In this document: one piece after another, positions 36,575 through 59,338 of the stretch
Position numbering within the stretch: the stretch's first letter is position 1
Layout: every line of letters begins with the position of its first letter
DNA from: a virus
Virus record (IMG/VR): IMGVR_UViG_3300025684_000011
Reading direction: 5' to 3' (one strand)
DNA length: 64,000 nt
Notes under the pieces: model-generated
Databases searched by the model: none
What the model saw: the letters and a program-made list of their open reading frames with translations, nothing else
Told to the model about the DNA's origin: nothing
Translations under genes and position numbers: made by a program

Positions 36575-36973
36575 ATGAAAGGATTCTTTGATATGCATGT
36601 TAGTAAACTGGCTATTGTTGCCGCTTTTTCACTTTCAATGATGTTAATAACATTTAACATAGCAACAGCTCACGAATATTCATACAAGCATTATCATAAT
36701 TCTCATGATAGTTGGGACGTTGACAGGTATGATGATTATAGTTACTATCACAGTGATTATTATAAACGTTATAAAAGAAATGATCGCGAAAGAGAACATT
36801 GGGATTGGTATTATGACGATAAGAGTGGCCCAGAAAGAGAGGACACATATTACATGCCAACACCTTCTCCAATAATCGTGCAACCTGTTCCTCCTATAGG
36901 TTATGAAAGAGTTATTGCATATGATAACTTATGTCATTGCAATATATACGTTCTTGTACCTATTAGACAATAA
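36575..36973 (+). CDS. exported Tyr/His/Asp-rich protein
   Basis: Signal-peptide-like N-terminus, low-complexity body. Confidence 0.6.
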   Translation: MKGFFDMHVSKLAIVAAFSLSMMLITFNIATAHEYSYKHYHNSHDSWDVDRYDDYSYYHSDYYKRYKRNDREREHWDWYYDDKSGPEREDTYYMPTPSPIIVQPVPPIGYERVIAYDNLCHCNIYVLVPIRQ

Positions 36974-37062
36974 TCTTAAAACCCTATCTAGTTTATTCTT
37001 TTGATAAATAAAGTTAACATGTGTATAGCACATGTTATTAATTAAAAAGGTACAAATAAAAT

Positions 37063-37281
37063 ATGGCAATAGAACTAACAGGCAAAGTAAAATGGTTTCA
37101 AGACGCAAAAGGATGGGGTTTTATTAAACCTGACGATGGTTCCGATGATGTTTTTGCACACTATTCAGCAATTAATTCGGATGGATTTAAATCATTAAAA
37201 GAAGGTCAAGCAGTAACATTTGAAGTAATTCAAGGTGCTAAAGGACGTCAAGCCGCCAATATCAATTTAATTGAATCTTAA
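37063..37281 (+). CDS. cspA: cold-shock protein
   Basis: [31 protein letters not shown]. Confidence 0.96.
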
Positions 37282-37414
37282 GACTAACTCTCCATAAATT
37301 ATAACAATAGTAATCTTAAAGACTAAATAGATTATGGTAGTACATGTATAGGAACATAGAGTAACTATGCATATAACATCTGTTTACAGAAAATAGATAA
37401 GGCATTAGAGATTT

Positions 37415-37912
37415 ATGAGTTTAACTGACTTTATCGACAGCAGTATAAGTCGATTCGCAAAATATTATTCTTGGTTTGCATTACTAATGGTATTGTTCGT
37501 TGTGATCAATGTCTTGGGAAGATATTTCTTTGACATTCGTAATGATTATGCAGTTGATTCAACATGGCAATTATACGGTATGCTTATTATGTTTGGTTGC
37601 AGTTATTCATTAGGAAAAGAAGCACATATTAGAACAGATCTGTTCTGGAACAATTATAAAGATCGTACAAAAGCAATTATTGACTTTGTAAGTTATCTCT
37701 TACTATTCTTTCCTTCATTTGCACTTATCACATACATCAGTTTCAATGATACATCAGCCGCTATTGAGATGAACGAACGTAGTTCTGAAACAATGGCTCA
37801 GCTTGTCATCTGGCCTATGAAGATTGGTATTACACTTGGCTTGGTACTTTTGATGGTACAAGCATTGAGTCAAATGATTAAATGTTATAGAAGGATTTTT
37901 ATCAATGAGTAA
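37415..37912 (+). CDS. dctQ: TRAP transporter small permease
   Basis: 4 TM; NVLGRYFF, HIRTD. Confidence 0.92.
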   Translation: MSLTDFIDSSISRFAKYYSWFALLMVLFVVINVLGRYFFDIRNDYAVDSTWQLYGMLIMFGCSYSLGKEAHIRTDLFWNNYKDRTKAIIDFVSYLLLFFPSFALITYISFNDTSAAIEMNERSSETMAQLVIWPMKIGITLGLVLLMVQALSQMIKCYRRIFINE

Positions 37913-39299
37913 TGAATGGCTAGCAATGACAATGTTATTTACAATGATTGCCGGCATATTTGTTGGAGTTCCAGTTAGTTTTACACTAACATTCTTAGCA
38001 TTAATTTTTGGATTAATTGGATTAGGACTAAGTGTTTTTGATCTTACATATCTTAACCTATTAGGAGGTCTTTCAGACGAAGTACTAATGAGTATTCCTA
38101 TGTTTATTCTGATGGGTTACATTGCTGAACGAGCTGGATTGGTAGAAAATTTATTTGAAAGTTTAAAAAAGGTATTTTCAGGCGTTCCTGGTAACCTATA
38201 CATTGTTGTTATCTGTATTGCAGTATTAATTAGTTTAGCAACAGGAGTAGTTGGAGCGTCAGTAACATTACTAGGCATTATGGCCGCTCCAAGCATGATT
38301 AAACAAGGATATGATGCTAAACTATCAGCAGGAGTAATAGCAGGAGGCGGGTCTCTTATTATGATTCCTCCATCTATTCCCCTTATTGTAATGGCGCCTA
38401 CTATGAATCTTAATATCATTGACGTATATGCGGCCGCAATGGGACCAGGACTAGCGATTGCATTTATGTATCTAGTATACGTTATATACCTTATAAAAAC
38501 AAAGCCAGAGGTAGCACCTATGATGCCTGTGGAAGAAAGAGTAGAAATAGATTACAAGTTAATTCTGTTAACATTATGGCATATTGTGCCATTAGCGTCA
38601 TTAATTCTTATTACACTAGGATCAATGTTATTTGGACTAGCAACTAGTACAGAAGCTGGTGCATTTGGTGCATTTGGTGCTTTATGTTTAGCCGCTATTA
38701 ACAGAAAATTAACTTTAACAAATATTCAAGAAGCATTACTAAAAACTACTAACACGTCAGCAGTAGTAATGTTATTAGCAATTACGTCAACTATATTTGG
38801 TGCCGTATTTGCTTCCTTGGGTGGTGACAAAGTCATTGTATCGGTACTAACTTCGATGCCTATACCCGGATGGGCAATAGTTGGAGCGATATTAGTGTTA
38901 TGTCATATTTTAGGCTGGCCCTTTGAGTGGCCAGTGGTAGTGCTAGTGTTCTTACCAATTTTCTTACCAGTATTAATTGATACTGGTGTTGACTTAATTT
39001 GGTTTGCGGCCGCTTTGGGTGTTATTTTACAAACAGCATATTTAACACCTCCTGTAGCCTTAACCGGATACTACCTAAAACAGGTGGTGCCTTCGTGGGA
39101 TCTTAAATTAATATTCAAAGCAATGATGCCCTTTATGTATATTCAGGTTATTTGTGTTGTAATATTGTTTATTACACCTGGCCTTGCAACATGGTTACCT
39201 AATTACCTAGCAGAGCAAAGAAAAAATATAGTACAAGAAGTACTAGATGATGATGTCAAAGGACAGGAAGTCGACTTCCTAGGTGTCCTTGGACAATAA
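37905..39299 (+). CDS. dctM: TRAP transporter large permease
   Basis: IPMFILMG, MIPPSI, TSTEAGA, LTPPV. Confidence 0.95.
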   Translation: MSNEWLAMTMLFTMIAGIFVGVPVSFTLTFLALIFGLIGLGLSVFDLTYLNLLGGLSDEVLMSIPMFILMGYIAERAGLVENLFESLKKVFSGVPGNLYIVVICIAVLISLATGVVGASVTLLGIMAAPSMIKQGYDAKLSAGVIAGGGSLIMIPPSIPLIVMAPTMNLNIIDVYAAAMGPGLAIAFMYLVYVIYLIKTKPEVAPMMPVEERVEIDYKLILLTLWHIVPLASLILITLGSMLFGLATSTEAGAFGAFGALCLAAINRKLTLTNIQEALLKTTNTSAVVMLLAITSTIFGAVFASLGGDKVIVSVLTSMPIPGWAIVGAILVLCHILGWPFEWPVVVLVFLPIFLPVLIDTGVDLIWFAAALGVILQTAYLTPPVALTGYYLKQVVPSWDLKLIFKAMMPFMYIQVICVVILFITPGLATWLPNYLAEQRKNIVQEVLDDDVKGQEVDFLGVLGQ

Positions 39300-39318
39300 T
39301 ATTTTGGAGAATAAAAAT

Positions 39319-40413
39319 ATGAAACGTTTCATCGGAGCGGTATTAGCTACCGCAATGTCATTTGGCGTAGTGGCTTCAGTAGCAACTGCAAATGCCAAAG
39401 AACTACAGATTGCATCTAGTTTTGGAGCAATCTCAACTTTTAACGAGCAAGCAAACTTTCTTGCCGAAAGAGTTAAAGTATTAACTGACGGAAAAATTGA
39501 TATGAAAATCAGACCTTCCGGCGCATTAGTTCCTTCTTTTAAGGTTCTAGATGCTACGGCGTCAGGTGCAGTAGATGGTGCATGGACTCAGTCTTATTAC
39601 TGGGTAGGAAAGTCAAAGACTCTTGCATTGTTTAATAGTCCGTTAGGAGGACCTTACGGTATGGACGGGATTGATTTCCTAGGTTGGATGTTCCACGGTG
39701 GTGGACTTGAATTGTATAACGATTTTTATCAGAATGAGTTAAAAATGGATGTACAGGCACTTCCAGCAATGCCTACTCAGAATCAGCCATTGGGTTGGTT
39801 CCATCGCCCAATTAAAGATCTAGCAGATCTCAAAAACTTTAAATGTCGTCAAACTGGCGCCAACGTAGAACTTTATGCTCGTATGGGTATGCAGACTATT
39901 GGTATGCCAGGTGGTGAGATTATGGCCGCGGCCCAAAAGGGTGTTATTAATTGTGCTGAATTCGTTGGTGGTTTAGAAGACGAACGTCTTGGATTTCCTA
40001 CAGTATGGAAATACTACTACTTGAATTCATTGCATGAGCATTCAAATACTGGTGATCTATTGATTAACGGTAAAGTGTGGCGTTCAATGACTAAGCAACA
40101 GCAGACCGCTGTTCGTTCTGCCGCTTATGAGTCATATCTATGGTGGTTAACTGATATTCAAGCAAAGAATGGTGAGGCACTTGCTAGAATGATCAAAGAG
40201 CATGGCGTTAGAGTTATGAAGACTCCAGCAGATATTTTGGTTGCTGAGTTAGAAACTATTGACGAAATGTTAGCAGAAAATGCCGCAAAGGATCCTTATT
40301 TTGCAAAAGTACTTGCTTCTCAGAAAGCATGGGCAAAGAAAGTAGTTCCATTTAAGAACGTAGCATTTACGCCTTATAACTATGCCGCAGATTACTACTG
40401 GAAGAAAAAGTAG
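39319..40413 (+). CDS. dctP: TRAP substrate-binding protein (TakP-like)
   Basis: Signal peptide; GALVPSF.VLDA..SG.VD, YYW.GK, GWF..PI..LADLK..K.R. Confidence 0.93.
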   Translation: MKRFIGAVLATAMSFGVVASVATANAKELQIASSFGAISTFNEQANFLAERVKVLTDGKIDMKIRPSGALVPSFKVLDATASGAVDGAWTQSYYWVGKSKTLALFNSPLGGPYGMDGIDFLGWMFHGGGLELYNDFYQNELKMDVQALPAMPTQNQPLGWFHRPIKDLADLKNFKCRQTGANVELYARMGMQTIGMPGGEIMAAAQKGVINCAEFVGGLEDERLGFPTVWKYYYLNSLHEHSNTGDLLINGKVWRSMTKQQQTAVRSAAYESYLWWLTDIQAKNGEALARMIKEHGVRVMKTPADILVAELETIDEMLAENAAKDPYFAKVLASQKAWAKKVVPFKNVAFTPYNYAADYYWKKK

Positions 40414-40433
40414 TTTTAAAAGCATATAACGTT

Positions 40434-40465
40434 AAAAATAGGGTGCTTATGCATCCTATTTTTTT
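40434..40465 (+). terminator. rho-independent terminator
   Basis: AAAAATAGGGTGC-TTAT-GCATCCTATTTTTTT. Confidence 0.85.
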
Positions 40466-40494
40466 GGCTATAACTTCTATATTTGTTATAAATG

Positions 40495-40502
40495 TATAAA
40501 TA
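40495..40502 (+). promoter_or_regulatory. T4-type late promoter
   Basis: Exact TATAAATA upstream of the second dctP. Confidence 0.6.
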
Positions 40503-40604
40503 CACTTGGATAGATACGGTTTAATACCTTATCGGAAAAAGCCAGTTTTCTATCTCAATGTTACTTGAAGTAATATTGTTTTCTTAAGAAAAAAGGAGTC
40601 AATT

Positions 40605-41543
40605 ATGACACAGAAAATTAGATGGGTTCTAGCACATGAGCCAATTGAATTATTTCTAAGAGCGGCAAAAGTTTTCGCATCAGAAGTTAATGCAAAAGCA
40701 GAAGGCGCACTAGATATTGAAGTTATGACAATGAGTGAGTATTCTGCAAAGTATAATAACGGTGTTGTTGTTACTAAGCACGAACTTGTTGATATGATTA
40801 ACAGAGGCGACATTGAAATGTCCCAAACATACACAGTAGACATTGGCGAATATGATCACGAATTCCGTGCATTAGATATGCCATTCCTATTTGAGTCACA
40901 CGACCACGCAACTAAGGTGTTCGAAGGCCCAATCGGTCAGTCACTACTAGACGGATTAACAGAATCAGCTGGTGTTAAAGGTTTAGCCTTTACATACTCC
41001 GGTGGATATAGAATTATTCCTGGACAAGAAGGAATTGATACTATTGAAGATATTAGAGGTCTAAAACTTCGTACTTCATTCTCACCTGTTGCTATTGAGA
41101 CTTTCAAAGCAGTTGGTGCAGACGTAGTTCCTATGGAACTTGAAGAAATGACAGACGCAATCCAAGACAAAGATATTCAAGTAGGTGAGTCTACTTACCC
41201 ACGTATCTATGCATTAGGACAAGACAGAGTTTCTAAGGTTATTAACCACACAGAACACTCATTGTTCTTAACAAGCATCCTAATCAACCAAGACTTCTTT
41301 GCAACTCTTGGTGAAGAACTACAAGGTATTGTTGTAGACGCCGCTAAAACAGCCGCTAATTACGAACGTGTAATCAGCATTGAAGACGTTGCACTTACAC
41401 AAGCTAAAGCTGAAAGCGATGGCATTGAAGTTCGTAGAATGTCAACAGAAGAAAAAGCTCGTTTCAAAGCCGCTACTGCTCATGTTTATGACATGTTCCC
41501 AGAGTTAGCTGGAACAGTTAAGAAGATCCAAGATACAAAATAA
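40605..41543 (+). CDS. DctP-family substrate-binding protein without signal peptide
   Basis: LDMPFLF...DHA, GGYR, EDIRGLKLRT, T.H; begins MTQKIRWVLAHEP after AAGGAG. Confidence 0.88.
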   Translation: MTQKIRWVLAHEPIELFLRAAKVFASEVNAKAEGALDIEVMTMSEYSAKYNNGVVVTKHELVDMINRGDIEMSQTYTVDIGEYDHEFRALDMPFLFESHDHATKVFEGPIGQSLLDGLTESAGVKGLAFTYSGGYRIIPGQEGIDTIEDIRGLKLRTSFSPVAIETFKAVGADVVPMELEEMTDAIQDKDIQVGESTYPRIYALGQDRVSKVINHTEHSLFLTSILINQDFFATLGEELQGIVVDAAKTAANYERVISIEDVALTQAKAESDGIEVRRMSTEEKARFKAATAHVYDMFPELAGTVKKIQDTK

Positions 41544-41563
41544 AATATCTTAGAACTACTATG

Positions 41564-41593
41564 GAAAAGGCGCTATTTGGCGCCTTTTCTTTT
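41564..41593 (+). terminator. rho-independent terminator
   Basis: GAAAAGGCGC-TATTTG-GCGCCTTTTC-TTTT. Confidence 0.85.
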
Positions 41594-41690
41594 GACTAAA
41601 TTTTACTAGCCCTTTTTTTATGAATAAGCAACTAATGGTATAAACTCTTTAACACGTTAACTAAATATTAGTAATGGATAGGAGAACATT

Positions 41691-42776
41691 ATGCCGGCAA
41701 GAAATCATAGAAATTGGTTAAAGAAACCATTAGTAGAATATGTTAGTAGCGAAATATATTCAAGTCAAGAAATATTTGAAGAAGAAATCGAAAGTATTTT
41801 CTCAAAGGTGTGGGTACCAGTATGTCACATCAGTGAAATGTATAATAAATTAGATTATCGAACATCTCAGATAGCAGGCATTAATATTTTAGTTTACAAT
41901 ACCGGAGATGGCGTTAAAGCATATCGTAATTATGGCAGTTGGGCACCTACTGGAACATTGCAAGCACCTATTGTAACAGTTGAACCACAACTACACAGCG
42001 AAGTAAAGCACGGAGGTATGGTATGGGTAACACTTGATCCTAATCCTACACAGAGTGTTGAAGAGTGGACAGCAGGTGCATTTGATTGCATTGCTGATGC
42101 TATTGACACAGAAGAACTAGAAATTTTTCATTATCATAAAGCAATTATTCCTACCAACTACAAACTATGGCATGATACTAACAGTGAATTCTATCATGAC
42201 TTCATGCATTACTTTAATCGTGTAACTGGTTTCAACGATGAGTATTTTGCTAGAAAGAATATTCCCTTTGATAACGGGCATGTGAACGTTAGTAGTTTTA
42301 CTGTAAATTATACAGAGTTTGATAAAGAAGGCGATAGAGGTGAACTAAGTTTTCCTAACTTACCTCCAAACCAATGGTATATGGTAGACTTGTTTCCTGG
42401 CTTTAACTTTAATTTACGTGGTAGTGCATATCGTTCAGATAGTGTTACGCCACTTGGACCAAATAGTGTACTAATAGAGTTTAGAGGATACGGTTTAAAG
42501 AAAGATACTCCAGAAGAAAGACAAACTCGTATTAAACATCATAATACTATCTGGGGACCGTTTGGCAGAAACTTACATGAAGATCTTTTAGGTGTAACCG
42601 GGCAAGGAGCATCAATGTCTCCAGGCACAGAGAAAAGAAATATTTTACATGGAAGACATGAAAATAGTACTATACATGATGAAGTTGGTATGCGTCACTA
42701 CTATGCAGAATGGGGAAAATATATGGAGTTAGATCCTAGTAATCCAATAAAAGAGGTTGACAAAAAGGCCGCATAG
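41691..42776 (+). CDS. ring-hydroxylating oxygenase alpha-like protein lacking the Rieske [2Fe-2S] motif
   Basis: IY...IFEEE...IF..VW..VCH.SE; NYKLWHDTNSEFYHDFMH; ED; no CxH...CxxH. Confidence 0.85.
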   Translation: MPARNHRNWLKKPLVEYVSSEIYSSQEIFEEEIESIFSKVWVPVCHISEMYNKLDYRTSQIAGINILVYNTGDGVKAYRNYGSWAPTGTLQAPIVTVEPQLHSEVKHGGMVWVTLDPNPTQSVEEWTAGAFDCIADAIDTEELEIFHYHKAIIPTNYKLWHDTNSEFYHDFMHYFNRVTGFNDEYFARKNIPFDNGHVNVSSFTVNYTEFDKEGDRGELSFPNLPPNQWYMVDLFPGFNFNLRGSAYRSDSVTPLGPNSVLIEFRGYGLKKDTPEERQTRIKHHNTIWGPFGRNLHEDLLGVTGQGASMSPGTEKRNILHGRHENSTIHDEVGMRHYYAEWGKYMELDPSNPIKEVDKKAA

Positions 42777-42787
42777 TGTTATAAATA
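42757..42787 (+). promoter_or_regulatory. tmRNA promoter (overlapping sigma70 and late elements)
   Basis: TTGACA-N17-TATAAATA. Confidence 0.7.
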
Positions 42788-42794
42788 TAATACA

Positions 42795-43222
42795 ATGGTG
42801 AAGCATAACAAACGTTGTACAGGACTCGGGGGCAGTACCCGACGCCTCCACCATAAACACACGAACGAGGAATGGAACTATAAACAGTTTTAAAGATAAG
42901 TGTAGAATATTTTATATCGTTAAAGGTCATCTTAACGTATCTACACAAACAATAGAAGATTGTTACGATTATTATTTTAGAAGAATGTGGAATAATAACG
43001 AGTGTTACATATACGAAGAAGGTTTTGAAGAATCGTATCGTGTTTTTATGATGGGGGCGAAATAGGATCGACTGGCAAGTAGTAGGAATGTGGAGTTGTC
43101 CGGATGTAAGCTCGGTTAACGCGAACAAAACGATAATTGCAAACGATAATTTTGCATCTGAGGATTTTGCCCTAGCGGCTTAGTTACTCTGGGCGGGTAC
43201 TGCCTGGAAACAGAAGTGCCAC
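42795..43222 (+). ncRNA. ssrA: two-piece (circularly permuted) tmRNA, alphaproteobacterial type
   Basis: Acceptor piece ends TCGGG-GGCAGTA-CCCGA-CGCCTCC-ACCA (42853); coding piece starts GGGGGCGAAATAGGATCGAC (43053), giving G3.U70; tag ANDNFASEDFALAA* at 43139-43183; outer ends approximate. Confidence 0.93.
42880..43065 (+). CDS. putative 61-aa protein in the tmRNA intervening segment (ATA start)
   Basis: Stop-free frame 42802-43065; GAGGA 8 nt before ATA; non-canonical start. Confidence 0.45.
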   Translation: MNSFKDKCRIFYIVKGHLNVSTQTIEDCYDYYFRRMWNNNECYIYEEGFEESYRVFMMGAK

Positions 43223-43237
43223 TTAAAGTGAATAACA

Positions 43238-44519: not shown

Positions 44520-45158
44520 ATGCTATCAACATATGCAAATAAACAAAATACTCATCTTGTAATAGATACAACAACTAATGGAATATTAATTGCAGTACAT
44601 AGCAACGTTGTTGCGAATGCAATATGTTTTAAAATATTGAATACAGAATCAATGTCTATTAGGCTAGTAGATTTCAATGAGCAAATAAATTCATTGCTTA
44701 ACCCACAGTTTAATGAGTCTAGTAATTTTATATTAACTAAAGTTGGACATAACTTAACACCTCAATCAACAGCAAATGTTGGACAACTTGTAAAAAGTAC
44801 AGATGGCCATGGTCGTTTTGGTGTAGCTAAAATGTCTGAAGTAACAGATGAGTGGATAGCATTAAGAAAGAAAGCACATAATATCAAAGAAGTTATAGCA
44901 AGTAGCGATCTTCGAGTTCTTAGATCAGCAACACCGAGCAAACAGTTCTTTGGAGACACTATTACCTTTCCTTTTATTAAAAAAGAACTTGATAAATGTA
45001 ATCCACAGGAAGATCAATACACAGATGCTATTCGAGAATGGGCAAGTATAGTAAATGTTCCTGTAAAAAAAGGATTTGAAATGCTATCAGCAGAAAGCAA
45101 TAATATTACTCATTTGGTTAATAATTCAAGAATATTTTGGAGTAAAAAATGTCTTTAA
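44520..45158 (+). CDS. PP-loop partner family protein, copy 1
   Basis: Shares KC.P..D.Y...I.EWA motif with 46179 and 54014. Confidence 0.7.
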   Translation: MLSTYANKQNTHLVIDTTTNGILIAVHSNVVANAICFKILNTESMSIRLVDFNEQINSLLNPQFNESSNFILTKVGHNLTPQSTANVGQLVKSTDGHGRFGVAKMSEVTDEWIALRKKAHNIKEVIASSDLRVLRSATPSKQFFGDTITFPFIKKELDKCNPQEDQYTDAIREWASIVNVPVKKGFEMLSAESNNITHLVNNSRIFWSKKCL

Positions 45159-46186
45159 ATTATGCTTTTAGTACTAAATTAAAACATGGCAGTGAATATG
45201 CTAAGAAAGACATTGCTGTTTTTCGTTCTCTCTATCGTATTGATCCAGATCCATTTTTAGTTGATAGAACTGGCTCTGTAGTCTTTCCTTTCTCAGAAAA
45301 CAATTATTTTCCAATGATACAACCGTTATCTAATGTTATGAGTTGGGAAGAATGTACAAAAGAGAGAGTTGAAGAACTAATATCCTTTGACAAAGAACTT
45401 TATGTTATGTGGAGCGGAGGAATAGATAGTACATTAATGCTTTTATCTTTTATGAAATATAGTAATATGAATAATGTTACAATAGTTTTAAACATGGACT
45501 CAATTAAAGAATATCCTTATTTTTATAAAAGGTTTATAGCTCAATGTAATTATAAATTACTGTCAACTGAACAATTAATGAATAATGCATTGCTAAATGA
45601 CATCAATGGATTAATAGTATCAGCCGAACATGCTGATCAGTTAGTTGGATCTCCTTTGGCTCAGTTACTTGCAACAACATCAGGTAGAACAATGCTTGGT
45701 CTTCCATTTGATGAAGACAATTTCAGCAAATTTTTAACAAACTTAAATGTTCCAGTACATCATATTGATACAATAATGGAACTCTATAACATTAGTATTA
45801 AAAACAGTCCTCGTCCAATTAAGAATATGTGGGATCTCTGTTGGTGGCATGGATTTAACTTTAAATGGCAAACCATCTACATGAAACTGGCTATTAGAAT
45901 AAAAAATCCTTTGAATCTTTTAACTTTCTACTCTTCGGTAAACTTTCAAAATACCAGTATACACCAAGAAGGTAATACACTTGATCTAAAGAAAGTTTTT
46001 AAAGATATAATCGTTAATTATACCGAAGATACTGAATACCTAAGAAAAGAAAAATTTGCATCTTCAACATTATATTATGGACTAACCTCTTCGACAGGAT
46101 TAGACAAAAATTGGAATAAAATTAATGTTGATATGATTGAATACTATAATAAAGATAACACTATAAAGGAAATAATGAATGCTTGA
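45149..46186 (+). CDS. asparagine-synthetase-like PP-loop ATPase, no glutaminase domain
   Basis: DRTG, MWSGGIDST, SAEHADQLVG, WW..FNFKWQ. Confidence 0.8.
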   Translation: MSLNYAFSTKLKHGSEYAKKDIAVFRSLYRIDPDPFLVDRTGSVVFPFSENNYFPMIQPLSNVMSWEECTKERVEELISFDKELYVMWSGGIDSTLMLLSFMKYSNMNNVTIVLNMDSIKEYPYFYKRFIAQCNYKLLSTEQLMNNALLNDINGLIVSAEHADQLVGSPLAQLLATTSGRTMLGLPFDEDNFSKFLTNLNVPVHHIDTIMELYNISIKNSPRPIKNMWDLCWWHGFNFKWQTIYMKLAIRIKNPLNLLTFYSSVNFQNTSIHQEGNTLDLKKVFKDIIVNYTEDTEYLRKEKFASSTLYYGLTSSTGLDKNWNKINVDMIEYYNKDNTIKEIMNA

Positions 46187-46898
46187 TACTTTTAGCAATA
46201 GAAAAAATGTTACAATGATGCTTATAGACCAAGAAGATCTCAGTATATTAACTGTTACATCAAGTGTCTCGGTACTTAATGCATTGTCAGAAGGTTTTGA
46301 TAACTCTGTACCTGTACTTGGAAGAATAACAAATCCTGATGCGTTAAAAGCACTAAGAACTTATAATCAATCAGCTTCTCAAGCTCTGTTAGTAAATGTC
46401 GGACTTGATGATCTAACTCAAGAAATTGAAACCAAAGCAAATTGGGACACGATTGGACTAACACCAATCAGCTTTGGCTTAAAGCCAATGAACGAAAAAG
46501 CAGAAGGGTTTGTATTAAAAAGAAAGATTGCAAATAGAAGAAACAACGTACTGTCTCAGATTGAATCTAAATTAGAACGTTATGCCAGTCGAGTTATTAA
46601 TTCTTCTCTTGATGATATTTTTATTCCCTATATGTCGGACGAACTTAGTAAATGTAAACCAGATGAAGACCAATATACCAATCCTGTAATTGAATGGGCA
46701 ATAGCATCAGGTTTAGATGTAAAACAAGCATATCATGAGTTAAGCATGGTAACAAGTTCTGCTAATTTAATTACTATGCGTCTTCATGCTCATTGGAGGT
46801 TCTTTGTAAACCAAGTTAATAAGCTCGACTTTCAAGTTGACGGAATACTAGAAAAAGTTATTGCTGATGCTGAACTAAAACTTAGATCTGGGCTATAA
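46179..46898 (+). CDS. PP-loop partner family protein, copy 2
   Basis: ELSKCKPDEDQYTNPVIEWAIASGLDVKQAYHEL. Confidence 0.7.
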   Translation: MLDTFSNRKNVTMMLIDQEDLSILTVTSSVSVLNALSEGFDNSVPVLGRITNPDALKALRTYNQSASQALLVNVGLDDLTQEIETKANWDTIGLTPISFGLKPMNEKAEGFVLKRKIANRRNNVLSQIESKLERYASRVINSSLDDIFIPYMSDELSKCKPDEDQYTNPVIEWAIASGLDVKQAYHELSMVTSSANLITMRLHAHWRFFVNQVNKLDFQVDGILEKVIADAELKLRSGL

Positions 46899-52961: not shown

Positions 52962-53037
<76 letters not shown>

Positions 53038-54719: not shown

Positions 54720-55037
54720 ATGTATAGACCATTACCAGACGGATTAACAATAAGAGAATCAAATGTACAAGGATTAGGATTATTTGCAACCAAAGATTTT
54801 GATGCAGATGTAGTATTAGGAATTGTGCATGTTATGAATAAAAACTTCCCTCATGGAAGTATTAGAACGGCATTAGGTGCTTTTTATAATCATTCAGATG
54901 ACCCTAATTGCAAAAACCATGAAGGCTTCTGGCATCAGATTCCTGTCCGTTATTTAACTACAACTAAACCTATCAAATCAGGTGATGAATTAACTGCAAA
55001 GTACACTTTATATAATAATTTTGAGGATGTAGCATAA
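54720..55037 (+). CDS. minimal SET-domain methyltransferase
   Basis: GLGLFATKD, NHSDDPNC, I..GDELT..Y. Confidence 0.9.
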   Translation: MYRPLPDGLTIRESNVQGLGLFATKDFDADVVLGIVHVMNKNFPHGSIRTALGAFYNHSDDPNCKNHEGFWHQIPVRYLTTTKPIKSGDELTAKYTLYNNFEDVA

Positions 55038-56128
55038 TGGGCGAATTATTATTATCTACAGTTTCTAGTCAAGTACATACCGCAACAAACAAAACACAAG
55101 ACCAACTGGATTTTTATTCCATTTATAATGTTATTGCTCCATTAGTTAATTTATGTGACAGAACTGGTCACGTTATAACTCCTTATAATTATAAAGTTAC
55201 ATTACCAATCCCAGCTAATGGCAAAGTAGGAACATTTGAAGAAATTGCAATCGCTAGGGCAAAAGAGTTATTAGATTTAAGTAAGGCAACTAACAAGCCT
55301 TGTTTAGTTTTGTGGAGTGGAGGCATTGATAGTACAACAGTATTAACAGCATTAATTATAGCCGCTGATGGAGATTATAGTAATATTAAAGTTTGTATGA
55401 ATGCTCAATCAATAAGAGAAAATCCTAAATTTTATTATAATTATGTTAGAGGTAAAATGGAAATTGCTCCTAGTGAAATAATGTTTGATTATATTAATAA
55501 AGATCATATTATTTGTAGCGGAGAGGGTTGTGATCAGTTATTTGGAACTGACATATATCTAGCAATTCAGGGTTGGGATAATAATGCAAGTATGTTCCAA
55601 CCATATACTTTTGAAAATGTTGGTGCATTTTTTATGCATAAAGGAATGCCTAGCAGACAAGCAAAAATTTGGTTTGATATAATGGATAACCAAATTAAAG
55701 CAAAACAACCTTGTGAAATTACAGATTTTAAAGATTTCTTTTGGTGGTACAACTTCTGTTATAAATGGCAAAATGTATATTATAGACTTTTTAATATGGG
55801 AAAAAGAATGTCTATAACACTTGACCAAGATTTCTTTGATAACAACTACCATAACTTTTTTATGAATGACGACTTTCAAAGATGGAGTATAAACAATCCT
55901 GATAAGAAAATTACAAAGGATTGGGCTTCTTATAAATTTACAGCCAAAGAGTTTATATATGCGTTTGACAAGGATGAGGAATACTTTAATAATAAAGTTA
56001 AGATTCCAAGTCTGATAAACGTGTTTCGAACTATAGAGCATGTTGGCGGACTAAATTCTGATTTTGAATTTTTACCTAAGAACTTTGATATTGAACCTTA
56101 TATTAACAAAACAAACAGTTTTACTTAG
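55037..56128 (+). CDS. asparagine-synthetase-like PP-loop ATPase, no glutaminase domain
   Basis: DRTG, LWSGGIDST, SGEGCDQLFG, WW.NFCYKWQ. Confidence 0.85.
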   Translation: MGELLLSTVSSQVHTATNKTQDQLDFYSIYNVIAPLVNLCDRTGHVITPYNYKVTLPIPANGKVGTFEEIAIARAKELLDLSKATNKPCLVLWSGGIDSTTVLTALIIAADGDYSNIKVCMNAQSIRENPKFYYNYVRGKMEIAPSEIMFDYINKDHIICSGEGCDQLFGTDIYLAIQGWDNNASMFQPYTFENVGAFFMHKGMPSRQAKIWFDIMDNQIKAKQPCEITDFKDFFWWYNFCYKWQNVYYRLFNMGKRMSITLDQDFFDNNYHNFFMNDDFQRWSINNPDKKITKDWASYKFTAKEFIYAFDKDEEYFNNKVKIPSLINVFRTIEHVGGLNSDFEFLPKNFDIEPYINKTNSFT

Positions 56129-56164
56129 GCTAACAATGTCACCCAAAAACTAATATATACTAAC

Positions 56165-57106
56165 ATGGAATATGGATTAGACAACAAACAAGAATTTTAT
56201 GTTGATTATACATCTTGTACTAGACCAGTAGGTAACATGCGAGATGAAATGGAAATTGCATGTACTAACTTAGCAGAAGATGCACAAAGTAGAAATACTT
56301 CTGTACTCATCAGCCTTAGTAGTGGATTAGATAGTCAGGTATTGTTGCACACATTTCATTCTTTAGGACTGCCATTTAGTACAGCCTTCTGCCATTGGCC
56401 AGGTTATAATGATAACGAACGTAGTAATATAGATATACTAGATAAGAAGTATGATAATAAAACTACTATTATTGAAATTAATCCAGATGATCATAAAGAA
56501 GAAGTTGAAAAACTAGCAATCAGTACTGGAATCCCAGCAGAACATCATTTAATGAAAATGTTTTTAAATCAACTACCAAATGAATTAGATATATTACAAG
56601 GTATTGAAAGTTTTGATTTTATATTCCGTAATAAAAAAACATATTGTATGGAAAGTTGGACTGCAATAGAAATAGCAAGTCAAAGAGCATTACAAGAAGT
56701 TAACCGTGAAGGTAAGATAGTATCAATTGACAGACGTTCTAAGTTTAACGAGTTTACACTAGCATTGTTAAGTGATTCAATAGTTGAAGGCTATTGTAAT
56801 TCTATTAGGTATATTGCTGGCAATGGTTTAATTGAGAAAAAATCAGGAGAGTCACCTCCTTTAATATTTTCATGGGAATATTATGTCAAACCTTTGTTAT
56901 ATGGTTTATATTGGAAAGGTGAATTAGAGTTATTTCCAAAAGATGTTAGTGCAAATAATATTGCCTGGATAATGAATCCAAGCGACAGCAGGTTGAGACA
57001 TAACTATAAAAATAAATGCGCCTATGTTGAGAGGAACGAATTAATAAACCATCTAAAAGATTTTGGGTCTAATAAGACTCGTAGATGGCATCAGTATAAA
57101 GGATAA
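56165..57106 (+). CDS. divergent PP-loop ATPase
   Basis: ISLSSGLDSQV, QGIE. Confidence 0.65.
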   Translation: MEYGLDNKQEFYVDYTSCTRPVGNMRDEMEIACTNLAEDAQSRNTSVLISLSSGLDSQVLLHTFHSLGLPFSTAFCHWPGYNDNERSNIDILDKKYDNKTTIIEINPDDHKEEVEKLAISTGIPAEHHLMKMFLNQLPNELDILQGIESFDFIFRNKKTYCMESWTAIEIASQRALQEVNREGKIVSIDRRSKFNEFTLALLSDSIVEGYCNSIRYIAGNGLIEKKSGESPPLIFSWEYYVKPLLYGLYWKGELELFPKDVSANNIAWIMNPSDSRLRHNYKNKCAYVERNELINHLKDFGSNKTRRWHQYKG

Positions 57107-57110
57107 AAAT

Positions 57111-58421
57111 ATGCCGGCACCACTTATAGATCCAAACGGATCTTTACCAGAAAAGAATATAATTGTAAATCCTTATATTAATAAGAAGTTAGGATATTAT
57201 ATTGTAGACGGTTTTGAGTTTGATTCAAAAATTAGAGCAGGATTACATTCTGTTAAAGTGAATAAGCCAGTACAATGGATATTTAACAACAAAGAATTTA
57301 GATCTCATGACTGGAGTGTTGAACCTAGTGAAACTTTAGATCAGTTATATGATGCAAGAGCTTTTGACCTAAGAGTAAAATATGATTACCTTATTTTAAG
57401 TTTTAGTGGAGGAAGCGATTCTTGGAATATTTATAAAGCATTTCAACGACAAGGCTTACACATTGACGAGGTAATTGTTAATACAATGTCTAAGGCAAGT
57501 AAAGGATTAGTAACAGATACCAGTACTAAAGCATTTAATGCTCCTGAAAGCGAACATGTAAGAAATACAATACCTAGGCTTAAAGAAATACAAAAAGAAA
57601 TGCCTATGACAAAGATTACTGTTACTGATCAAAGTGACTATCTGTTTGAAAGCCTAGAGGCGGCCGGAGATGCTAGTTGGGTATTAGAGAAACGTGAGGG
57701 ATTGAATCCTGCAGGTATTACTAGATTCAATTATTTGCATTTTATGGAAGTAAGAAAGAGATTTGATAAAGATAAAAAGATAGGGCTGATAGTTGGTATT
57801 GAAAAGCCTAGAACACTTGTTCACCAAGGACGTTTCTTTGTTAGATTTGCAGACAGAAGTACCAATATGATTACAGTAGCAGAACATTTAAAAGACTATC
57901 CTAATTCAACAGTTGAATTCTTTTACTGGTCTCCAGATTGTGTTCCTTTGCTTATTAAACAAGCTCATGTTGTTAAGAAATACCTTGAGGCTAATCCTTC
58001 TATGCAAGTTCATTTCAATAGTGAAAATTCTACAGGAAAAGTATATAGATTATTGCACGAGCCTTTACTTAGAAACTTATTATACAGTACCTGGGATCAA
58101 CGTTGGTTCCAAGCAGAGAAAGCAGTATTAGATTGGGATAGTGAATTTGATCAATGGTTTAGAGTTGGTTATCAAGATACTAAAGCATATCAAATTTGGA
58201 TGGAAGGTCTAAAGTATGTAGCAGACAACTTAAAGCCCTTTCTACGTTATGTAGAAGATCCTGATAATGATATATGGAATACTAGTGTAATGAATTCTTT
58301 TATTGATAGGGGTGATGAATTAGTTGGACAACGTCCGGATGGTTTGGCTCCGGTCCTTCATAACTACGAAGTTGGTAGAATGAAAGTAACCGGGCCAGGT
58401 GTTAATACGTTTATGCGTTAG
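57111..58421 (+). CDS. divergent PP-loop ATPase
   Basis: LSFSGGSDSWNI, HIDEV, GIEKP, EFFYWSP. Confidence 0.7.
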   Translation: MPAPLIDPNGSLPEKNIIVNPYINKKLGYYIVDGFEFDSKIRAGLHSVKVNKPVQWIFNNKEFRSHDWSVEPSETLDQLYDARAFDLRVKYDYLILSFSGGSDSWNIYKAFQRQGLHIDEVIVNTMSKASKGLVTDTSTKAFNAPESEHVRNTIPRLKEIQKEMPMTKITVTDQSDYLFESLEAAGDASWVLEKREGLNPAGITRFNYLHFMEVRKRFDKDKKIGLIVGIEKPRTLVHQGRFFVRFADRSTNMITVAEHLKDYPNSTVEFFYWSPDCVPLLIKQAHVVKKYLEANPSMQVHFNSENSTGKVYRLLHEPLLRNLLYSTWDQRWFQAEKAVLDWDSEFDQWFRVGYQDTKAYQIWMEGLKYVADNLKPFLRYVEDPDNDIWNTSVMNSFIDRGDELVGQRPDGLAPVLHNYEVGRMKVTGPGVNTFMR

Positions 58422-59338
58422 TTCTTCTGTAATGGAATATTATTGTCTATTAAAAATGCTTTTAATTTAACATTATTACGGAAAGCAAAAAGTTTTGTTT
58501 CTAAGTCTGTTCCTGCAATAGGAAACAATCCAATATTTTTAAGTCCTTGAACAAACTCTTTTCTCTTAAAAACATTGCTAATATCTTCTTTAATACTATC
58601 TAAGTTAGGCGACTTCCTTGATGCAATTAATCCAATAGGACTAACAAACGGAAACTCTTCCTTATACACATCTTGCCATGTAGGAATGTCTAATCCTAGA
58701 TCTTGACTTGACATAATGCTTGTAATATTAGCATCTAAATGATTTTTCACAGTTGGATAGTTTGCAAACATGCAATCAATATTACCTGCTAGTAAATCAC
58801 TCAAAGCAGTAGTTCCTCCTTTGGCATAAGGAATAACCTTACTTTCAATTTTTAACTTTTTAATTAGTACTTCTGTAGCCAAATGTTCACTACTTCCGTA
58901 ACCCGCGGCACCAAATAAAATTCTTCCCTTATCAAAGTTTTCTAAGTCTGCAACTGTTGACATTTTTCTATCATCATTACAAACTAATACATTAGGCATT
59001 GTAGCAACAACACCAACTAGTTCAAAGTCTTTAATAGGATCATATGGTAAATCTTTAAACCTAATTTCGTTAGTAACATAGATTTGTGCCATTGTGGCTG
59101 TAATAATAGCATTATTAGTTGTTAACATATGTTTGATTGCAATTTTACCTGCGGCACCTGGCCGGTTTACAACATTATATTTGTTATTAGAATCAACAAC
59201 ATTTCTTTCAATTAATCTTGTAGTTTGATCACTTGGGCCTCCAGGTCCGTGATGTACTGTAAATTCAATGTCCGCGGCGGAGGCAGTTGAAACAGCAAAT
59301 GCCATAATTGCGGCACTAATTAAAATATTTTTAATCAT
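58418..59338 (-). CDS. tctC: tripartite tricarboxylate transporter substrate-binding protein (TctC/Bug)
   Basis: Signal peptide; PGGPSD..R, VVNRPGAAG.I, YDP.KDF, G.GS..HL, IPY.KGG..A..DLLAG. Confidence 0.88.
   Translation of the reverse strand: MIKNILISAAIMAFAVSTASAADIEFTVHHGPGGPSDQTTRLIERNVVDSNNKYNVVNRPGAAGKIAIKHMLTTNNAIITATMAQIYVTNEIRFKDLPYDPIKDFELVGVVATMPNVLVCNDDRKMSTVADLENFDKGRILFGAAGYGSSEHLATEVLIKKLKIESKVIPYAKGGTTALSDLLAGNIDCMFANYPTVKNHLDANITSIMSSQDLGLDIPTWQDVYKEEFPFVSPIGLIASRKSPNLDSIKEDISNVFKRKEFVQGLKNIGLFPIAGTDLETKLFAFRNNVKLKAFLIDNNIPLQKN

Follow-up and report, generated by a model that had tools for sequence, protein, structure and literature searches.

DctP-type solute-binding proteins (SBPs) of the TRAP transporters are textbook extracytoplasmic proteins. 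A gene for a member of this family that carries no export signal, here termed DctP2, lies on a 64,000-nucleotide (64-kb) stretch of viral DNA (IMG/VR record IMGVR_UViG_3300025684_000011; the whole stretch is hereafter called the window), and the question is what role is left for such a protein. An earlier note on this DNA had proposed that a stand-alone DctP was repurposed in the cytoplasm to sequester, sense or channel a small acid, such as a metabolite, a signal or a defence messenger.

Phage and Host Setting

The window comes from the genome of a large T4-like phage. Nearly all of its genes are on the plus strand, and they include those for a large terminase, a UvsX-like recombinase, helicases and NrdAB. 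The DNA is of marine origin: near-identical copies of the 5.5-kb stretch containing the DctP2 gene and the TRAP cassette were found in runs of 16 studies labelled marine, seawater or estuary. A megablast search of positions 37000–43000 against the catalogued cultured phages gave zero matches. When DctP2 was compared with the same catalogue by tblastn, only matches of at most 27% identity were obtained, which coincided with genes annotated as DctP in genome records of Salmonella or fell on short records that have no annotation; no isolate in that catalogue has a close homologue. The following RNA gene bears on the host.

42753–43223: permuted alphaproteobacterial-type tmRNA (RF04321, 105.9 bits; RF01849, 101.3 bits)

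The type of this tmRNA, for which ARAGORN made no call at these positions, suggests an alphaproteobacterial host. A tRNA-Thr (TGT) at 52962–53037 is the sole tRNA in the window.

Predicted Absence of an Export Route

40605–41543 (+): leaderless DctP-family protein DctP2, 312 aa (HMM, fold model, alignment)

The DctP2 protein begins MTQKIRWVLAHEP. The open reading frame had been described as starting at the first strand of the mature fold, behind a ribosome-binding site (RBS) and with no leader, and this description was borne out. The RBS, AAGGAG, is located at 40593–40598, 6 nt before the ATG, and strand 1 is formed by residues 3–9 of the AlphaFold model, so that the hydrophilic N-terminus is part of the fold. 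An in-frame TGA (40566–40568) lies 13 codons 5' of the ATG, and none of the 12 sense codons between them is a start codon. From the stop codon of dctP1 to the ATG of DctP2, all three frames are closed, and hence no hidden leader can be joined to the protein. Residues 18–297 were aligned with positions 12–281 of the PF03480 profile, which leaves no room for a leader. The sequence has no Cys, no RR and no hydrophobic stretch; a lipobox is thus absent, as the protein contains no Cys. Its pI is 4.8, indicating an acidic protein. Neither a signal peptide nor a lipobox, the export signals of the DctP family, was therefore found. On the evidence of its sequence, the Sec, Tat and lipoprotein routes to the periplasm are all closed to DctP2. 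The same phage encodes two proteins with clear Sec signals, DctP1 and a TctC-family protein, and the bare N-terminus of DctP2 is meaningful because the phage uses ordinary signals where export is wanted. The dN/dS values of DctP2 against its relatives (0.12–0.19) indicate purifying selection.

Leaderlessness across the Clade

A scan of IMG/VR gave 42 viral loci with DctP2 homologues (38–99% identity, most 63–99%), all 42 of which are leaderless: the stop-to-stop frame either opens a few codons before the (K/R)W(V/L)(L/I)AHEP strand or contains only a short hydrophilic addition, and neither form has the length or hydrophobicity of a signal. In a protein search, the homologues with E ≤ 1e-10 numbered more than 1,495, and the 120 best-scoring ones are all 311–330 aa long. 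A comparison with 1.84 billion cluster representatives gave 8,196 matches at E ≤ 0.001. Fused, longer forms of DctP2 were absent at E ≤ 1e-20, which is weak evidence. DctP2 is assigned to a distinct orphan subfamily, named WVLAHEP after its N-terminal motif. Among 168 rows of this subfamily, a signal-like hydrophobic leader was recognized in 74 and none in 94. The leader label changes 11 times on the tree of these rows, compared with approximately 55 times in shuffles; the tree is not securely rooted, and no direction (signal lost or gained) is drawn from it. DctP2 falls inside a 35-row clade that is entirely leaderless, and the signal-bearing proteins are gathered for the most part in a single other cluster. 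The predicted leaderless state is clade-wide and not peculiar to the DctP2 of the window. The earlier note had asked whether the loss of the leader extends to the whole clade, and had named close homologues that all carry signal peptides as evidence against its reading; every close homologue proved leaderless.

Tandem leaderless DctP pairs, 47–48% identical to DctP2 and flanked by PP-loop B genes, were observed in two loci (L032:8001–9920 and L036:6993–8939).

Fold and Putative Ligand Clamp

DctP2 matched the Pfam family DctP (PF03480) with an E-value of 2.2e-51 and 175.4 bits, against a cut-off of 23.4. It also passed NCBIfam NF037995 (126.9, cut-off 50), and scored 138.6 with the narrower TIGR00787, under the cut-off of 175.05. 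The AlphaFold model, obtained from a 46-sequence alignment, has a pLDDT of 96.6 and contains a long spanning helix (236–271). This model and its Foldseek matches exhibit the two-lobed type II binding-protein fold. The Foldseek matches are IseP, SiaP and sugar-acid-binding TRAP proteins, with TM scores of 0.84–0.87 and identities of 18–27%. Arg147 of SiaP is known to bind the ligand carboxylate (PMC5812351). In the alignment, R156 of DctP2, located in the GLKLRT motif, corresponds to this arginine within the GLK(I/M)R of solved members, in agreement with the earlier claim that the GLKLRT arginine is kept; R136 aligns with the second clamp arginine, SiaP R127. Neither R136 nor R156 varies within the 25-row phage clade. 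The carboxylate clamp thus appears to be intact in DctP2, which makes a small carboxylic acid the most likely ligand. Only about 50% of the wider WVLAHEP subfamily retains R156, so that classical carboxylate binding may not hold for all of its members.

DctP2 shares with SiaP, IseP (8T9T), 4P47, 4N8Y and 4P9K the family HMM, the fold, the clamp arginines, and the PFLF and H-containing motifs. It differs from them in having no signal peptide, in belonging to a subfamily that is unlinked to DctQM, and in the replacement of the canonical QENP motif, for which the WVLAHEP subfamily has E[ST]TYxR. The invariant set of this subfamily consists of H11, E12, T130-S132-G133-G134, R136, E195, T197, R200, H218, E254 and R255. 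The subfamily-specific polar residues among them (H11, E12, E195, T197, R200, H218, E254 and R255), together with the E[ST]TYxR motif and the location of the genes in enzyme clusters (below), could mean that DctP2 is itself an enzyme, whose binding fold was recruited for acid catalysis in a pathway of PP-loop, BKACE and ATP-grasp proteins. We consider this unlikely: H101, H218 and the PFLF motif are shared by DctP proteins in general, the model could be superposed over its full length on ordinary binding proteins, and literature searches gave no catalytic precedent in the DctP family.

A Predicted Separate Transcription Unit

40434–40463 (+): terminator closing the dctQMP1 operon and parting it from DctP2 (hairpin −18 kcal/mol, z −6.3, U run)
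40495–40502 (+): TATAAATA box upstream of DctP2, T4-type late-promoter consensus, putative promoter
40503–40604 (+): 5' leader of DctP2, approximately 100 nt, modestly structured (fold −21 kcal/mol, z −2.35)
41563–41590 (+): intrinsic terminator after DctP2 (hairpin −18.6 kcal/mol, z −6.8, U run)

The promoter and terminator with which the gene had been credited were both recovered, the TATAAATA box at 40495–40502 as a presumed promoter and the hairpin at 41563–41590. The box is rarer in the 64-kb window (5 copies) than expected from shuffles (11.5), and each of the three copies on the plus strand lies in an intergenic stretch ahead of a gene. No riboswitch or other Rfam family was detected in the 5' leader. 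Metatranscriptome contigs of three studies cover the DctP2 unit (40517–41532, 40528–41541 and 40633–41567); RNA-library contigs begin 15–30 nt 3' of the box and end at 41532–41567, and separate ones span the 3' end of dctM and dctP1, stopping at 40387–40425. Such contigs can contain DNA and prove neither transcription nor expression rank; that their edges repeat across studies and match the predicted promoter and terminators is a consistent hint of a monocistronic DctP2 mRNA. DctP2 would probably be expressed late, from its own transcription unit.

A late-type promoter box would also suit a protein that is associated with the virion, or is extracellular after lysis, such as a sugar-acid-binding adhesin, which would need no signal peptide. 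One phage group has the gene between a head-closure gene and more late-module genes, after the tail sheath and tail tube, several phages place it within the tail and head module, and the closest relatives of known structure are binders of sialic acid and other sugar acids. A virion or extracellular role nonetheless seems improbable to us. Bacterial chromosomes contain leaderless homologues that are surrounded by metabolic genes and not by phage genes; DctP2 has no added capsid- or fibre-attachment domain; and the genome position of the gene varies widely between phages.

A palindrome, TTAACGTTAA, was observed once per locus in five loci, 3–17 nt before the first start codon of the DctP ORF (L013:1976–1985, L016:7979–7988, L026:2988–2997, L027:7974–7983 and L035:7966–7975). 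It is preceded by a conserved GGAGTCATGACC hairpin and a TAAATA box, and may be a leader element. The sole TAACGTTAAA in the window is located at 40427–40436, before the dctP1 terminator, and could be there by chance (31 of 100 shuffles).

The Neighbouring TRAP Cassette

37415–40413 (+): phage TRAP cassette dctQ-dctM-dctP1 (PF04290, PF06808, PF03480)
37415–37912 (+): dctQ
37905–39299 (+): dctM
39319–40413 (+): dctP1, from its likely ATG

The complete dctQ-dctM-dctP1 operon stops 192 nt 5' of DctP2, so that the word stand-alone, used in the earlier note, is apt for the transcription unit and not for the locus. The dctP1 gene overlaps dctM, and its product bears a classic Sec signal (MKRFIGAVLATAMSFGVVASVATANA). 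DctP1 most resembles the TakP-type ketoacid- and lactate-binding proteins (2HZK, 7UG8 and 2ZZV), whereas DctP2 belongs to a different subfamily; identities between DctP1 and the rows of the DctP2 subfamily tree are at most 22%, and DctP1 joins that tree on a very long branch.

The position of DctP2 directly after a complete TRAP operon, and the presence in relatives of another leaderless paralogue at the opposite end of the cassette, could indicate that DctP2 has kept a part in TRAP transport. It might be an additional receptor for the adjacent phage DctQM, or for a host QM, that is exported by an unrecognized route, or it might act on the transporter from the cytoplasmic face. We regard this as quite improbable. 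DctQM is nearby in only 1 of the 33 non-redundant viral groups, which is the window lineage, and DctM was not found within 6–10 kb at the other 32 loci or at any bacterial WVLAHEP locus. A genome scan with the window DctM as query likewise gave no DctM beside any WVLAHEP locus, leaderless or signal-bearing, whereas distant classical DctP loci in the same scan do adjoin DctM genes. Furthermore, a signal-bearing SBP encoded by an overlapping gene is already part of the cassette, which also ends in a terminator of its own, the N-terminus of DctP2 is hydrophilic and within the fold, and DctP1 and DctP2 are of different subfamilies. Among the viral loci, the cassette is confined to close relatives of the window phage (L004–L008 and L014). 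In this lineage, the importer may supply an acid to DctP2; a ligand shared by DctP1 and DctP2 is put forward as a possibility only, because the two proteins are of different subfamilies.

Several observations were made on the genes around the cassette. The third DctP paralogue of the relatives (L004:3257–4336 and L006:3219–4325) is leaderless and 33% identical, with R156 changed to Q, and lies between homologues of 36575–36973 and 37063–37281, across the cassette from DctP2; the window has no third paralogue, and the corresponding spot is 90 nt only. The gene at 37063–37281, immediately 5' of the cassette, encodes a cold-shock protein, and its coding region contains a sub-threshold Rfam match to the cspA thermoregulator (24.9 bits). 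Downstream of DctP2, the gene at 41691–42776 encodes the catalytic domain of a ring-hydroxylating oxygenase alpha-subunit (PF00848, E 2e-6) with no match to a Rieske domain. Its homologue is located 3' of DctP2 in the nearest relatives only (L001, L004 and L005), and none was found there in L006.

Recurrent Gene Neighbourhood

When all ORFs of 58 loci were clustered, two PP-loop families (SGGxDS) were the commonest true neighbours. A PP-loop gene of the asparagine-synthetase-like type lies within 3 kb of DctP in 17 of the 33 non-redundant loci, often adjacent to it. Also recurrent near DctP are DUF2061 (E 1e-15), a signal-bearing TctC-like protein, a PurD-like ATP-grasp protein, QueC-like PP-loop proteins, a fatty-acid-desaturase-like protein, a Rieske protein, BKACE, an SDR and an AMP-ligase. 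The window contains the following members of this set.

44520–46898 (+): candidate functional neighbours of DctP2, namely a 212-aa protein, a PP-loop SGGIDS enzyme (45149–46186) and a 239-aa protein
55037–56128 (+): PP-loop paralogue, closest to the PP-loop genes beside leaderless bacterial DctP; putative link to DctP2

Homologues of 45149–46186 are located directly 3' of DctP2 homologues in L011, L015, L017–L024 and L045. The PP-loop gene closest to DctP2 in the window, which is flanked by two putative partner genes, lies 3.6 kb downstream and is not adjacent; this counts against the reading preferred below, as do the differences in neighbour sets between lineages and the loci that have no nearby ligase. 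The model of the 45149–46186 protein has a pLDDT of 88.6, and Foldseek gave weak matches (E 2e-3 and weaker) to AsnB, beta-lactam synthetase, TsnB9, NAD synthetase and LarE. All five of these enzymes are known to adenylate a carboxylate. A search of the PP-loop and partner proteins with NCBIfam and Pfam gave no names and only marginal PP-loop matches. The idea of a single conserved partner family was dropped, as hhalign detected no relation between the partner families f8, f10 and f21.

A similar arrangement is present in bacterial chromosomes, where a partner protein of approximately 250 aa and a PP-loop protein of 390–410 aa are followed by a leaderless DctP. This trio was found on a 243-kb Pseudobdellovibrio contig, on a 504-kb contig of an unclassified bacterium with ClpXP, and on a contig of a Xanthobacteraceae MAG with HisRS and RND pumps. 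AMP-ligase, SDR and BKACE genes are also present in two of the three contigs, and DctQM was found within 10 kb of the trio in none of the three. In phage loci L009, L012, L013, L016, L026 and L027, the partner and PP-loop genes lie beside DctP2 homologues and their products are 25–47% identical to the bacterial ones; the BKACE proteins of phage and bacterial clusters are 60–65% identical. The PP-loop paralogue of the window (55037–56128) is 27–29% identical to the PP-loop proteins of L091 and L093 (E 5e-27 to 5e-29). A complex prediction for the L016 trio of PP-loop, partner and DctP proteins scored 0.00, which is evidence in neither direction. Bdellovibrio and Bacteriovorax have an MFS transporter and a 204-aa protein as DctP neighbours instead.

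Two further arrangements were noted. The TctC-family gene of the window (58418–59338, minus strand), whose product has a clear signal peptide, converges on three tandem PP-loop-like genes (55037–58421), so that SBP and PP-loop genes are found together for another SBP family as well. In Bdellovibrionota, a DctP-like gene is located near dlt-like genes, consisting of a carrier-sized ORF (about 78 aa), an AMP-ligase and an MBOAT, and near an NMT1-type ABC system (L091:6126–10343, L095:1013–2751 and L096:5757–8766).

These neighbourhoods also bear on the suggestion that DctP2 counters host defence as a sponge for an immune signalling molecule. By reasoning alone, a phage-encoded cytoplasmic binder of a high-affinity type is what such a sponge would look like. 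The defence part of the earlier note nevertheless found no support, and we hold it to be highly improbable. PADLOC gave no match for DctP2 or its neighbours, with only a marginal QueC-like PP-loop match (E 0.0046) when PADLOC-DB was searched with DctP2 and the PP-loop and partner neighbours; the bacterial chromosomal homologues sit in metabolic clusters, and late expression would be odd for a sponge. The immune signals known so far are mostly nucleotides and not simple carboxylates.

Proposed Role of DctP2

We propose that DctP2 is a carboxylate binder of the cytoplasm, probably expressed late, and that the acid it captures is most likely destined for acid-adenylating enzymes; we put the probability of this reading at roughly 55%. 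It fits best because the fold and clamp are those of a carboxylate binder, no route to the periplasm is recognizable, the gene is under purifying selection and independent of DctQM, and the neighbours are of carboxylate-activating types. The cytoplasmic half of the earlier small-acid proposal is retained here, on the basis of the leaderless homologues and the Sec signals of DctP1 and TctC, and its sponge or defence-messenger half is not; channelling of a small acid fits the recurring carboxylate-adenylating PP-loop, ATP-grasp, AMP-ligase and BKACE neighbours. DctP2 would be made without an export signal from its own, probably late unit, and would stay inside the infected cell. Its two lobes, with the R136/R156 clamp, would close round a small carboxylic acid, which may then be held for or presented to PP-loop, PurD-like ATP-grasp and AMP-ligase enzymes. 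In the window lineage, the captured acid may be that imported by the adjacent phage TRAP importer.

More tentatively, the leaderless DctPs in general could provide cytoplasmic substrate capture in undescribed ATP-dependent acid-ligating pathways, accompanied in this phage by a two-sided relay with the TRAP importer. In such a relay, the periplasmic binder would feed the importer and the cytoplasmic binder would trap the product for a phage-specific modification or metabolite. We regard this extension as speculative and somewhat doubtful.

Exported binding proteins are known as auxiliary metabolic genes of phages, such as the cyanophage PstS, which keeps its signal peptide and feeds a host membrane transporter. 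DctP2 is likewise a host-type solute-binding gene on a phage, and differs in having no export route. A second comparison is offered by the orphan Bug/TctC proteins of the TTT family, for example AdpC of R. palustris (PMC5812351). Similar to DctP2, they are carboxylate-binding SBPs without adjacent membrane partners, often encoded beside acid-using enzymes (PMC5812351). Unlike DctP2, they belong to another family (PF03401) and are exported to the periplasm, and the TctC protein of this phage has a signal peptide. Our literature searches, in which the term DctP is polluted by dCTP, found no description of a phage DctP family or of leaderless or cytoplasmic TRAP SBPs. The present locus contributes the juxtaposition of the leaderless DctP2 with an entire phage TRAP system that has an exported receptor of its own, the boundaries seen in RNA libraries, the clade-level split between leaderless and signal-bearing proteins, and the trio conserved in bacterial chromosomes.

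The leaderless DctP proteins form a large family in uncultured aquatic phages and some bacteria, usually encoded beside acid-activating enzymes, and DctP2 probably handles an acid within the infected cell rather than serving import. DctP2 is small, soluble, Cys-free and well modelled, which makes it an easy entry point, and its ligand would make the product of the whole gene set tractable. The steady company of carboxylate-activating enzymes points to an undescribed pathway run by abundant marine and freshwater phages in infected cells. A large and conserved leaderless branch under purifying selection would give the TRAP SBP fold a second life as an intracellular metabolite handler.
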